In this document: one piece after another, positions 3,202-18,108 of the stretch | How positions within the stretch are numbered: the first letter of the stretch is position 1 | Layout: every line of letters starts with the position of its first letter | The notes under the pieces: generated by a model | Database searches by the model: none | What the model was told of the DNA's origin: nothing | The model's input: the letters and a program-made list of their open reading frames with translations, nothing else | Position numbers and translations under genes: made by a program | Source of the DNA: a virus | Length of the DNA: 64,000 nt | UHGV virus genome: UHGV-1366990 | Direction: 5' to 3' (one strand)

Positions 3202-4437
3202 TCAGCGTTTCAAGAGTGTCATGAGGTTGACGCTGCTGGACTTCGGCTTGTCCTCAACCTTGCGCACAGGCATCTTCAGGTTTGTGTAGACCTCGGACGG
3301 TTCCCAGCGCGTACCCTTTTGCAGGTGCCAGATATGTAGAGGAACACCAGTCTCAAAGAACACAGGCATCTTCCACTTCTGGACGCCTGGAACGTGCCCT
3401 GTAGGAGCCTTTTCACATAACAGGGTATCTGGCAGCCAGAGCGAACGGGCTTCCCAGAGCGCTGCGCAGGAGTATTCAGGCCAGACGCGTTCCATGTAGT
3501 CTATCTCATCCCAGGTACGCTCTGCGTCCCACCCGATGTAACGGGTATTCTTCAGTCGGAAGAATTTCTTCAGCCAACAAGCACCGGAGGTTTCAAAGTT
3601 CAGGCGGTTGATGAACGTCAGGTGCCCGAACTCAGCCACACAATCCTGGAACGCCTGCTCAAGGTCGGCCTCAAGGATGTCACACTCTTCATCCGTGATA
3701 GGACAACCGTTGATCTTTTTCTTCCCGTGTTTAGTCACCCAATCGTCACGGTTGGACAAGAACGCCGCGCCATTACGGTTGGACTCGCTTCCATCACGAT
3801 CACGCAGCATGAAGCCAGGGACGTCAATGGTGTATTCGTTCCCGAAGACCATGTTCAGGGCTTCCAGGAAGTTCCAGGCGCTCAGGCGACCGAAGTATTT
3901 CCAGGACATCGCCGTGTCCCACAGCTGGGTGAATTGTTCTGTCTTATCGATGCACACCAACATCCCACGGAAAGCGTCATATTGAGTACGGCCAGCCAGC
4001 CAGTCAATATAGGACTGAACACACGGGATCATCTTGGACTTGCGGTAGCGACAGTCGGTATCGAATCGCATGCGATCAAAGTTCAGATTATACCAATCAG
4101 AGAAGCGCTGCATCTCTTCTTTGGACTGGGGTGGTACAGGGAACTCACTGTAGATCGTCCACGGCCCGACAGCGTTATAGCAACAACCCCACAGGAATGC
4201 CATCCAGATCTTGCGCTCGACTTTCTGTTCGAGACTGATGCCTTCAGTGACTTCGATCGCATAGTCCATCAGACGCATCTGCTGGTTGTGCTCTTCTGTG
4301 TAGGACAGCGCCTCCACCCAAGCCTTGAGCAGGTACATACGATTCTCAGGCTTGCGATAATCAACAGCCAGGTCAATCGGGTACTTCCATTCAGTCGGAG
4401 GCTTATAGCCCGTCGGCATTTTAGATAAATGATGCAT
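3202..4437 (-). CDS. hypothetical protein (411 aa); candidate nucleic-acid modification enzyme
   Basis: Long ORF with GAGGAAG RBS; Trp/Cys-rich; no motif I can name with certainty. Confidence 0.6.
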   Translation of the reverse strand: MHHLSKMPTGYKPPTEWKYPIDLAVDYRKPENRMYLLKAWVEALSYTEEHNQQMRLMDYAIEVTEGISLEQKVERKIWMAFLWGCCYNAVGPWTIYSEFPVPPQSKEEMQRFSDWYNLNFDRMRFDTDCRYRKSKMIPCVQSYIDWLAGRTQYDAFRGMLVCIDKTEQFTQLWDTAMSWKYFGRLSAWNFLEALNMVFGNEYTIDVPGFMLRDRDGSESNRNGAAFLSNRDDWVTKHGKKKINGCPITDEECDILEADLEQAFQDCVAEFGHLTFINRLNFETSGACWLKKFFRLKNTRYIGWDAERTWDEIDYMERVWPEYSCAALWEARSLWLPDTLLCEKAPTGHVPGVQKWKMPVFFETGVPLHIWHLQKGTRWEPSEVYTNLKMPVRKVEDKPKSSSVNLMTLLKR

Positions 4438-14511: not shown

Positions 14512-15168
14512 TTACTTCTTGAACAGACGAAGGAACTTCATCATGTTTTCCATGAAAGTCGGCTTCTTGACCTTTTGTTTTACCGGAGCGCCCTGATCAT
14601 TCAGAACACGACTGACCGGAGGAGTAGGTGGTGTCGGCGCTTTCGTTTCACAGGCCGGAACGATGTTCACGTCATGATGAGAAGACTCAGATGTAGTGTT
14701 AACAACATTGTTCTCCTGGGCGACAGGCTTGACGAGATTCTTTTCATACTCGCGAGCCATGGCCTGGTACATCAGATTCAAATCCATCAGATCAACAGAC
14801 TTGACCTTGCGACGACGCCAATTGGCGCTTTCTTCGCCATAGAAATCATATCCGTTTCTGATCAGCCAGTGCACGGCTTGTTCAAACGAACCGAAGACCA
14901 TAAGTGGAGCGCCCTGGCCTTTCTCAGATTGTTCCAGGCTACCATAACCCATCAGCACAACCTGGCCTTTGATACTCAAATCAAACGTCATACCAAGGTT
15001 CGGGATGTTTTTATCGCGGCGGAAGAACCCGCCATCACGGTAGACGTAAACAGGCGACAGGAACTCATTCAGAGTGCGCTTGACACCCTTGTATTGGAAG
15101 AGTCTGGCAATTGGAGGGGTGTCATGGGAAATCACTTCGTTCAATTCCCAGATAGAAACATTACGCAT
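14512..15168 (-). CDS. hypothetical protein (218 aa)
   Basis: ORF with GAGGA RBS; first gene after tRNA-cluster terminator. Confidence 0.5.
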   Translation of the reverse strand: MRNVSIWELNEVISHDTPPIARLFQYKGVKRTLNEFLSPVYVYRDGGFFRRDKNIPNLGMTFDLSIKGQVVLMGYGSLEQSEKGQGAPLMVFGSFEQAVHWLIRNGYDFYGEESANWRRRKVKSVDLMDLNLMYQAMAREYEKNLVKPVAQENNVVNTTSESSHHDVNIVPACETKAPTPPTPPVSRVLNDQGAPVKQKVKKPTFMENMMKFLRLFKK

Positions 15169-15290: not shown

Positions 15291-15322
15291 ATAAAAAGAA
15301 AGCCGGATAGGATATCCGGCTA
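15291..15322 (-). terminator. intrinsic terminator closing the minus-strand tRNA cluster
   Basis: Hairpin agccggatag/gatatccggct followed on minus strand by ttcttttt. Confidence 0.5.
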
Positions 15323-15537: not shown

Positions 15538-15626
15538 TGGCGGAAGGTGAAGGATTCGAACCTTCGGGGGCTAAAAGCCCCACTCGATTAGCAGTCGAGT
15601 CCCTTAAACCTCTCGGGCAACCTTCC
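15538..15626 (-). tRNA. tRNA-Ser (anticodon GCU), type II with long variable arm, CCA encoded
   Basis: Hand-folded: acceptor GGAAGGT/ACCTTCC, anticodon stem CTCGA/TCGAG, loop CTGCTAA, variable stem GGGGC/GCCCC, T-arm GAAGG-TTCGAAT-CCTTC. Confidence 0.85.
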
Positions 15627-16148: not shown

Positions 16149-16224
16149 TGGCGACGATGGCAGGACTTGAACCTGCGACATACGGTTTAACAGACCGCCG
16201 TTCTACCGACTGAACTACATCGTC
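16149..16224 (-). tRNA. tRNA-Asn (anticodon GUU), CCA encoded
   Basis: Hand-folded: acceptor GACGATG/CATCGTC, D-arm GTTC-AGTCGGTA-GAAC, anticodon loop CTGTTAA, T-arm GCAGG-TTCAAGT-CCTGC. Confidence 0.85.
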
Positions 16225-16395
16225 TTGCAAATCACTATACCATATAAAGTTTATTGAACAAACATTTATTTTACAACAAACTGTATTGGCGGGGTCTGAG
16301 GCTTTTCACCTCACCTGCTGGGTTTGGCCGCCCAGCCGTTCTCTATGAGGATTCACTGTCCGGACAGCTATCCATTAAACTATCGCCCCTCAATA

Positions 16396-16472
16396 TGGTG
16401 ATCCTGATTGGGTTTGAACCAATGACCAATGAATTATGAGTTCACTGCTCTAACCGACTGAGCTACAGGACC
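16396..16472 (-). tRNA. tRNA-Met (anticodon CAU; initiator/elongator/Ile-lysidine not distinguished), CCA encoded
   Basis: Hand-folded: acceptor GGTCCTG/CAGGATC, D-arm GCTC-AGTCGGTTA-GAGC, anticodon loop CTCATAA, T-arm ATTGG-TTCAAAC-CCAAT. Confidence 0.85.
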
Positions 16473-16684
16473 AAATTATTGTGTACCAACCAAGGACTGT
16501 CAACCCTTTATCCCGTTTGTGTATGATCAGTTCATGCATGCCTCTTTGTGCTGCCTCACGGCATGCGCTTCTGTGGGTCTTTGGCTTGCACCATAGCCTC
16601 GCCACAGGCGTTTATTTTTCCAGGGCTTTCCACTTACAAGTCTTAACCAGACCGGGATACGGGCTTGTAAGATCGGGTTGGACA

Positions 16685-16762
16685 CAACTTTGATAGCTCT
16701 GGTACTAAAGATCCCGCGTCACCCATAGACATGGTTTATAAAATCCAGAGCTATCAAAGTTG
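16685..16762. repeat. perfect 18-bp inverted repeat (caactttgatagctctgg / ccagagctatcaaagttg) around a 42-nt loop
   Basis: Read directly from sequence: 16685-16702 pairs with 16745-16762. Confidence 0.6.
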
Positions 16763-16783
16763 CACCCAATGCTCTCTCAAGTT

Positions 16784-16909
16784 CACAAATCGAAGTGCCC
16801 TGACTCAACAGTATGGCCCAATATGCTGTTATCGTCCACCGGATTGGCCGCCCAATTTGTAGATCAACCTTTGGGTTTAAGATAAATTGTCAAGACACTT
16901 CGATTTGTG
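16784..16909. repeat. perfect 14-bp inverted repeat (cacaaatcgaagtg / cacttcgatttgtg) spanning ~100 nt
   Basis: 16784-16797 pairs with 16896-16909; both arms followed by CCC. Confidence 0.5.
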
Positions 16910-16994
16910 TGCCCTTCACCTGCCAGGGATCAGGGCTGATGGCAAGACTTCGCTCACATCTTTCAAGATACTCGTGAGAATATCCTCAAAGATG

Positions 16995-17022
16995 TGGAGC
17001 CGTTTTTAGGAGTCGAACCCAA
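16995..17022 (-). other. tRNA-like 3' end (CCA, acceptor-like strand, T-arm TTGGG-TTCGACT-CCTAA) without complete cloverleaf
   Basis: T-loop consensus on minus strand; no 5' acceptor partner found. Confidence 0.2.
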
Positions 17023-17905
17023 ATGCTTGGCCAGCGCTGACCTTACATCCCATCTGACTTAGGCAACCCACCTCTGCTTACTCAGGAGCTTATCCCCTTT
17101 GGACAGTCAGATATAACGGCATTGTCGACGGGAGATTATTAATCACACCCTCCCGTCTATTTTAGTGCGCCGAATTTGGTGATGAGGAATCGGAAGACCT
17201 CACTGACTTATAGGCTGTTACGCCGCCATCAGAACTTCGGAATCATTAGCAGTTATTTGCTTGGTCAGTTTCTAAAAACCCGCAAAGTCACTCACAACGA
17301 AAACGAAAACCTGTTTGAGCACAAGACGCCATGTCCTGGGTTCACATCGAAGTGTTTGTCTAATGCCCAAACAGCTTTTCGCTTCAGTGGGTTAACTATA
17401 CTTTGTAACCCGTTATTGATAAAACCTTTTATTTTTGTTGGCGAGGGTATCACCATCGATTTACCGGAACTTACGCATCCGGCCTCGCCTGTTGGTGATC
17501 CTTCGAATCCGGGAAGATCAGTAGGAACTATGAATCAAGTTAATTCAACCAACAGGAACCTTGTTGCCCTTTGACGCAACATTATGAACCCTCTATGGAA
17601 GACTCATAATGTTGTCGGCGTGATGGAGATTAGCGCCCCCGACCTCCCCTTGTGTTGGTGTCGACTTGCCAACGGGGTGCTCTCTATTTCTGAGCTAATC
17701 ACGCTACAACAGGGAGTTTCGTTCTCCGACGGTCAAGTGCGTCCACTGACACCATGCAAGGTGGATATTGACTTATGAAGCCGGAGTCCTCGTCCTAGGA
17801 CTGTGCTTGGCCTCAGCCTTTACACCGCTGGTCGCCCGACTCTTTACACCATAAAATTTACTATACTACAGCCAAGCTAATTTGAAAAGTCCTCTCCTCT
17901 TTGTG

Positions 17906-18052
17906 CTACACTGCCCACAGCAGTGCGGACGAACCTTCACACAAAACCGGATGCGCCGAAGTGGGCGACTGTTTACCGGACTGATCGGGTAGACCCAGGA
18001 GAGAGCAGGTAATCCCGATCAGGAGGATGAGGAGTAACATCATGTAAAACAT
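17906..18052 (-). CDS. small ORF (48 aa) with signal-peptide-like N-terminus MFYMMLLLILLIGITCSLLG
   Basis: Below ORF-track cutoff; GGAGGG RBS 6 nt upstream of ATG; coordinates from manual reading. Confidence 0.25.
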   Translation of the reverse strand: MFYMMLLLILLIGITCSLLGLPDQSGKQSPTSAHPVLCEGSSALLWAV

Positions 18053-18108
18053 AGTGTTCCCTCCTTCCATGCAACTAACTTTACTGCAATTATTTATTGA
18101 ATAAAGCG

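Follow-up and report, generated by a model that had tools for sequence, protein, structure and literature searches.

Conserved long RNA stem-loops in an untranslated tRNA-linked locus of Ackermannviridae phages

The DNA analysed here, a window of 64 kb, belongs to an Ackermannviridae phage whose closest relatives are Escherichia phages RPN242 and A221 and Enterobacter phage fGh-Ecl02 (92-99% identity). Between a 54-aa ORF (17906-18070), a member of a genuine phage protein family, and an ORF at 15168 lies an untranslated stretch of about 2.7 kb with many helices; about 1.4 kb of it, from the 54-aa ORF down to tRNA-Met, is without any credible ORF. Three tRNA genes are called on the minus strand, tRNA-Met(CAT) at 16396-16472, tRNA-Asn at 16149-16224 and tRNA-Ser at 15538-15626, and only the three tRNAs pass an Rfam gathering threshold in the window. 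The untranslated gap is common to all genera sampled, namely Kuttervirus, Agtrevirus, Taipeivirus, Limestonevirus and Miltonvirus. The loci of the relatives were located among viral contigs with an invariant 23-mer of the segment called module A below, and a module map was obtained by BLAST of window segments against 35 fetched relative loci; a 30-mer exact-pattern scan of viral contigs gave no matches. The part of the locus treated here has no match among 5,426 E. coli genomes, and a host or prophage origin was rejected on that ground. The neighbouring proteins match only PHROGs of unknown function, one of them with an additional sub-threshold PALP match, and were rejected as RNA enzymes. Literature searches on Ackermannviridae transcriptomes or non-coding RNA returned nothing relevant and no account of this locus; a 2024 review of the family is without mention of tRNAs, non-coding RNA or transcripts.

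Two perfect inverted repeats lie upstream of tRNA-Met on the RNA strand, exactly where the initial annotation had placed them: the first at 16685-16702 / 16745-16762 (18 bp, 42-nt loop), the second at 16784-16797 / 16896-16909 (14 bp, with 98 nt between the arms). When mismatches are allowed, the arms extend to 25 nt (16678-16702 / 16745-16769) and 21 nt (16784-16804 / 16889-16909), and the resulting elements are named H1 and H2. If the loop is limited to 130 nt, five perfect inverted repeats of the 64-kb window have arms of 12 bp or more, and only these two reach 14 bp or more; in 100 first-order Markov shuffles the latter class averaged 0.04 repeats, and no arm exceeded 15 bp. The claim that such stems are unlikely by chance is thus borne out, and so is the remark that they do not resemble terminators: no U tract follows either hairpin. 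Indeed, an identity as intrinsic terminators was rejected, as the loops are large (42 and 84 nt), the stems A+U-rich and a U run missing on either strand.

The locus is a mosaic of sharply bounded modules, each of which is present, absent or replaced independently according to lineage. Proceeding upstream from tRNA-Met, the window contains module A (16473-16677, minus strand), H1 (16678-16769), H2 (16775-16915), H3 (up to 16997), the tRNA-like module D (16995-17120), hairpin E (17127-17157) and, upstream of E, a tag-coding region with the tag at 17250-17218 and further sequence to 17905. No untranslated segment of the locus is conserved more widely than module A, the immediate 3' neighbour of H1 on the RNA strand: from Serratia to Dickeya phages its identity is 78-97% in every genus sampled, Limestonevirus and Miltonvirus included. 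It contains the invariant 23-mer (16610-16632) and a long-range closing helix (16501-16515 / 16653-16667), and forms the leader of tRNA-Met. A contig of 526 nt under the name Flavobacterium poyangense (L035, NZ_JAALLN010000218.1) carries Ackermannviridae modules A, H1 and X (see below), and is most likely a phage contamination of a bacterial assembly.

In every relative a further module, X, of about 380 nt or more, sits between H1 and H2, with the repeats CAACCAATG and CACCCAATG at its borders. The window retains a single hybrid copy of the repeat, CACCCAATG at 16763-16771, with the microhomology CA[A/C]CCAATG, and its H1-H2 junction is not matched in one piece among 50,697 phage records. Compared with the relatives, the adjacency of H1 and H2 is a microhomology deletion of about 380 bp that removed module X and is found in no other record; its loss in the window indicates that X is dispensable. 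The same slot is filled in Taipeivirus phages by the small RNA STnc100 (Rfam RF02076), with 48.7-52.9 bits, above the gathering score, on the minus strand (loci L007 and L009, 1779-1993; L017, 1118-1331); a sub-threshold match is found in Ag3 (L010, 2879-2988). STnc100/PasD is a family of prophage and Stx-phage sRNAs (RF02076; bioRxiv 10.64898/2026.05.13.724894), so that the locus does host sRNA genes, although the slot is deleted in the window and H1 and H2 are unlike this family.

On the minus strand H1 (16678-16769) is a 25-bp RNA helix (16678-16702 / 16745-16769) with an 18-bp perfect core and a 42-nt loop, whose fold has an energy of -47.2 kcal/mol and z = -7.9. In an alignment of 14 distinct homologues (A2), 94% of the cells of the helix are paired and 7 of its 25 pairs are changed on both sides, whereas pairing falls to 32-42% when the partner strand is slid by 1-3 columns. 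Two G·U pairs of the helix are invariant across the family. The length of the loop ranges from 4 to 55 nt among genera: it measures 42 nt in the window, 37 in Taipeivirus, 55 in Ag3 and 4 in LIMEstone, where it lies atop a stem of about 20 bp. A loop motif, UAUGGGUGAC, is kept in three genera. In Serratia phages the position of H1 is occupied by a sequence that has a T-arm and ends in CCA.

H2 (16784-16909, minus strand) has a 21-bp closing helix (16784-16804 / 16889-16909) with a 14-bp perfect core, which encloses an insert of 84 nt; the insert is itself conserved, internal helices included. In 13 sequences, 99.6% pairing was obtained with RNAalifold and explicit counts of pairs. A covariance model (R1) revealed, with 43 bits, that Ag3-type phages have a divergent copy. 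In an alignment of 17 distinct H2 sequences that includes this type (A3), pairing in the closing stem reaches 98.5%, and both partners have changed in 8 of its 20 pairs. Overall, 10 pairs of H2 are doubly changed in this alignment versus 4.8 in column shuffles, a value reached by 0 of 500 shuffles, counts which are no probabilities because the alignments hold related sequences; the case for selection on the helices is made by the slid-partner control and by the independent lineages.

Compensatory changes have preserved both stems in Agtrevirus-like, Kuttervirus, Taipeivirus and Limestonevirus relatives. Watson-Crick (DNA) pairing alone covers about 83% of the H1 and H2 cells. When the elements are read as minus-strand RNA, 37 cells in H1 and 80 in H2, 117 together, are G·U pairs, against 6 and 0 when they are read as plus-strand RNA. 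Since the wobbles are almost all G·U on the minus strand, the elements act as RNA, in the direction of the tRNAs, and not as DNA cruciforms. On this comparative evidence H1 and H2 are independently folding RNA stem-loops of the minus (tRNA) strand, and selection acts on their helices. Together with H3, described below, their stems measure 19-25 bp, about two helical turns of dsRNA, and stay constant where the cargo varies. The initial annotation had considered that the repeats could build a large structured RNA. Compared with dinucleotide shuffles, the fold of 16640-16960 has z = -5.5 as minus-strand RNA and -6.0 as plus-strand RNA, and the structured RNA is upheld by the conservation of the pairings through compensatory changes in related phages and by the minus-strand wobbles; the single large fold gives way to independent stem-loops.

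It is very unlikely that the repeats function in DNA, where they could form cruciforms or hairpins that serve replication, recombination or packaging, or that they are left over from a mobile element with terminal inverted repeats, since the 117 wobble cells pair only as minus-strand RNA and would be A·C mismatches in DNA. Covariance-model searches found one copy of each element per genome and no paralogues or dispersed copies, so that they are not dispersed repeats; no other copy occurs in the window, no target-site duplication of the kind expected for MITEs or transposon ends was seen, and direct-repeat iterons were not found around H1 and H2. Such a function would accord with the indel junction that adjoins H1, with an HNH endonuclease gene nearby in CBA120, and with the linearisation of the dinky, AV101 and maane records inside or beside H1. 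However, Ackermannviridae package their DNA by the headful mechanism, with random permuted ends (PMC6763660; PMC9409062), and the record ends at H1 are therefore a convention or an effect of assembly. The deposited genomes of dinky (L004) and AV101 (L005) start at the equivalent of 16746, and that of maane (L018) ends at about 16695. A physical genome end or pac site at H1 was rejected, on account of headful packaging with random ends and of the wobble asymmetry of the RNA strand.

A search of Rfam 15 with the window and its relatives, at gathering and at permissive thresholds, found no family match for H1 and H2; with E values up to 10 their only hits are to miRNA-precursor models, with scores far under the threshold that are explained by generic long hairpins. 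This result also bears on the proposal that the repeats are inverted duplications of tRNA fragments, or degenerate tRNA gene copies. The location within a tRNA cluster would fit such an origin, as would the T-arm and CCA sequence at the H1 position of Serratia phages and a T-arm-like motif in the H3 cargo of Kuttervirus. However, BLAST against the tRNAs of the window recovers only words of 6-11 nt, and neither ARAGORN nor Rfam sees a tRNA in H1 or H2; the proposal is already largely refuted, and we regard it as the most improbable of the explanations considered.

Only short and unconserved ORFs overlap H1 and H2, and a protein-coding role was rejected. In relatives, the 75-aa ORF that RPN242 has in module X lacks a start codon and is interrupted by stop codons. 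Small 'hypothetical proteins' are annotated over H1, X and H2 in ON212266 (USL85803.1), MG428991 (CPT_May_034/035) and MN045230 (CPT_Magnus_031-035); they are probably spurious, given the evolution of the region as RNA and the lack of ORF conservation.

Immediately upstream of H2 on the RNA strand, H3 (16955-16996, minus) consists of a helix of about 19 bp (16955-16973 / 16978-16996) closed by a tetraloop, and compensatory changes occur in its stem among genera. Its cargo is 4, 47, 50, 81 or 85 nt long across genera, 4 nt being the length in the window; in Kuttervirus and Taipeivirus the stem encloses 47-85 nt, including the T-arm-like sequence GGGTTCGAGTCCC. H3 covers the last two bases (CA) of the CCA encoded by element D (16995-17120, minus strand), a tRNA-like element that was read from the sequence and is not called by ARAGORN or Rfam. 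D has an acceptor stem (GCCGUUA/AAACGGC), U73, an encoded CCA at 16997-16995 and a canonical T stem-loop (UUGGG-UUCGACU-CCUAA, 17022-17006), and a 60-nt arm replaces the D and anticodon arms. The element is 95-100% identical in Kuttervirus and Taipeivirus, against 74-89% for its flanks.

Helices of 17-28 bp occur five times on the minus strand of the untranslated block. H4 (17300-17385) has 26 bp with 2 mismatches, and its three lineage variants appear to be compensatory; a further helix of 17 bp is located at 17577-17614. Hairpin E (17127-17157), formed by GACGGGAG and CTCCCGTC around a 15-nt loop and followed by TATTTTAG on the plus strand, is highly conserved and resembles an intrinsic terminator of the plus strand, which is devoid of genes here. 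Two more sequences have tRNA-like traits. The first, at 17440-17489 (minus), has an acceptor stem GGCGAGG/CCUCGCC and lacks a T arm in the window; in Ag3 (L010, about 3840-3939) the same element carries a perfect T arm, GUGUGGUUCGAUUCCACAC, and lies upstream of the tag frame, so D and this element seem to alternate between lineages. The second, 103 nt long (GGGGCGAUAG...CCUCAGACCCCGCCA), lies between tRNA-Asn and tRNA-Met at 16287-16389 (minus); it has a T-arm-like hairpin and an encoded CCA, its acceptor pairing amounts to merely 4 bp, and neither ARAGORN nor Rfam calls it.

Upstream of hairpin E, the minus strand contains at 17218-17250 a short frame without start codon, GCU AAU GAU UCC GAA GUU CUG AUG GCG GCG UAA, which would encode ANDSEVLMAA. 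It is preceded by AAAUAACU, close to the resume region of E. coli ssrA. The corresponding tags of relatives are ANDDVVLMAA, ANDNTFLAVA, ANDNAYLAVA and ANDNAFLMAA, with synonymous codon differences, so that it is the peptide which is conserved in the family, and the frames share the features of tmRNA tags: an alanine codon at the beginning, no start codon, and a hydrophobic end in AA or VA. The Rfam model tmRNA_permuted scores 22.3 bits on the tag region of the window, below its gathering score, and permuted-tmRNA models match the homologous place in several phages with 20-30 bits versus cut-offs of 47-50; ARAGORN calls no tmRNA. A tRNA-like element with a T arm is found downstream of the tag in the window (D) and upstream of it in Ag3. 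The alanine pair G3:U70 is absent from both: D has C:G at 3:70, together with U73 and two acceptor strands that are both local, and the upstream element of Ag3 has C3:G70. A canonical tmRNA fold, in one piece or permuted, could not be assembled from the tag region and the tRNA-like elements and was rejected. Taken together, the tag region and the tRNA-like element represent a candidate tmRNA. In an exhaustive survey of 2014, mycobacteriophages and Bacillus phage G were the only phages listed with ssrA.

On the minus strand a sigma70-type promoter-like site (TTGACA-17-AATAAT, 11/12 matches) is found at 16475-16503. Its end is 2 nt away from tRNA-Met, it overlaps the 3' strand of the closing helix of module A, and its conservation is confined to lineages with module A directly next to tRNA-Met. 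Such a strong promoter directly before tRNA-Met means that the tRNAs need no upstream transcript and can be made alone; transcripts from upstream would read into them. The minus strand from 17395 to 16503 holds no sigma70-like promoter and no terminator-like site, in a scan to which phage-specific promoters are invisible; the only intrinsic-terminator-like site between 18800 and 15000 lies after tRNA-Ser (15301-15321, minus). Because of this sole terminator, of the lack of internal sigma70-like signals and of the lack of conserved ORFs, the untranslated block is likely to be one transcription unit, co-transcription being inferred here since phage-specific promoters escape such a scan.

The initial annotation had also proposed processing or recombination sites, and this is a plausible role for the hairpins, whose helices of about two turns lie within what is probably a single untranslated transcription unit; the microhomology deletion took place at a module boundary beside H1. 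We tentatively favour the view that H1, H2 and H3 are putative RNase III-type processing or stability stems of a polycistronic precursor of stable RNAs, to which we assign a little less than an even chance. The tmRNA-like RNA, D, H3, H2, H1, module A and tRNA-Met would be transcribed as one precursor, and the RNase III of the host would cut the long helices and separate the modules. Cleavage at H3 would free the buried CCA end of D, cleavage elsewhere would excise cargo RNAs enclosed by a stem, such as the 84-nt insert of H2, and the remaining stubs of the stems would shield the products from exonucleases. Some cleavage is indeed needed at H3 to expose the 3' end of D, since the CA of its CCA lies inside the helix. 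A dsRNA of about 20 bp is the minimal substrate of E. coli RNase III, and helices of this length or longer are unusual in folded RNAs; with G·U pairs counted, H1 has 25 bp, H2 21 bp and H3 19 bp. To our knowledge, RNase III is present in all hosts of Ackermannviridae. This role is favoured because helices of about two turns covary in register while their contents change, and because they sit between RNAs that need defined ends. The conserved insert of H2 and the loop motif of H1 suggest functions beyond that of a cleavage signal.

These last features would be expected if H1 and H2 were small stable RNAs in their own right, acting as protein-binding RNAs, decoys or regulators, with the stem as a scaffold or binding platform, the loop or insert as the active part, and the whole locus as an array of small-RNA cassettes. 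The 84-nt insert is conserved with its own helices, the H1 loop motif is held in three genera, STnc100 occupies the Taipeivirus slot above its gathering score, and the modules are gained and lost like genes in a mosaic. However, individual modules have no flanking promoter-like or terminator-like signals, H1 and H2 match no Rfam family, and the stems persist where there is hardly any cargo to carry, with 4 nt in the H1 loop of LIMEstone and in the H3 of the window; we therefore consider stand-alone RNAs the main competing explanation, though a rather unlikely one. A less specific possibility is that heavy folding protects a long untranslated transcript against 3' exonucleases and the loading of Rho, no single hairpin having a particular task. 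The untranslated stretch of about 2.7 kb with its many helices would fit this reading, but the same helices of 20-25 bp are held in register across genera by position-specific covariation, which is more constraint than non-specific structure needs and makes this reading improbable.

Well-known phage and bacterial systems offer parallels to these elements. The RNase III hairpins of the T7 early transcript (R1.1 and others) and the stems that close 16S and 23S rRNA in rRNA operons are processing helices. Like H1 and H2, they are about 20 bp or longer, lie between or around functional RNAs and have some internal mismatches, and in both cases the stem may enclose the RNA that is released. Differently from these stems, H1 and H2 are known from sequence alone, share no sequence similarity with them, and have as neighbours a tRNA-like element, a tmRNA-like element and tRNAs instead of mRNAs or rRNAs. 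The tRNA cluster of T4 encodes the stable RNAs species 1 and 2 (rnaC, rnaD), which derive from tRNA precursor transcripts. They too are small structured RNAs among phage tRNA genes; T4 belongs to another phage family. Bacterial Y RNAs (YrlA) have a long closing stem around a tRNA-like domain and resemble the H3 of Kuttervirus, whose stem encloses a hairpin and a T-arm-like motif; unlike YrlA, the elements described here have no Rfam match and no identified Ro-binding motif, the H3 of the window is free of cargo, and H1 and H2 have no T arm. Finally, the large ornate RNAs GOLLD and ROOL are phage-associated, often found beside tRNA genes, and have extensive conserved structures (PMC12286853, PMC5737381). 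They share the phage and tRNA context with H1 and H2 and differ in architecture: no Rfam match is obtained for the latter at E values up to 10, and the modules are separable and mosaic instead of forming one multi-junction fold. H1 and H2 are thus new examples of familiar structured processing or small-RNA elements, inside an undescribed locus.

In its broadest form, the proposal is that most of the Ackermannviridae genera sampled possess an undescribed stable-RNA operon, composed of a divergent tmRNA-like tagging RNA (with the tag ANDSEVLMAA in the window), non-canonical tRNA-like RNAs and swappable small RNAs, in which the constant helix of about 20 bp would be both the signal for excision and the recombination unit for the exchange of cargo; this wider scheme is speculative and possible rather than probable.

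Ackermannviridae are widely used as biocontrol and therapy phages. In the annotations of these phages the locus is left blank or filled with spurious small 'hypothetical proteins', and the present results are a caution against ORF calling in the region of H1 and H2, which represent two new RNA motifs ready for covariance-model annotation. That several elements are maintained as RNA by purifying selection suggests a layer of RNA biology in these phages, which may involve processing, translation rescue or its subversion, and small RNAs, and for which defined elements are now available for deletion or mutation.
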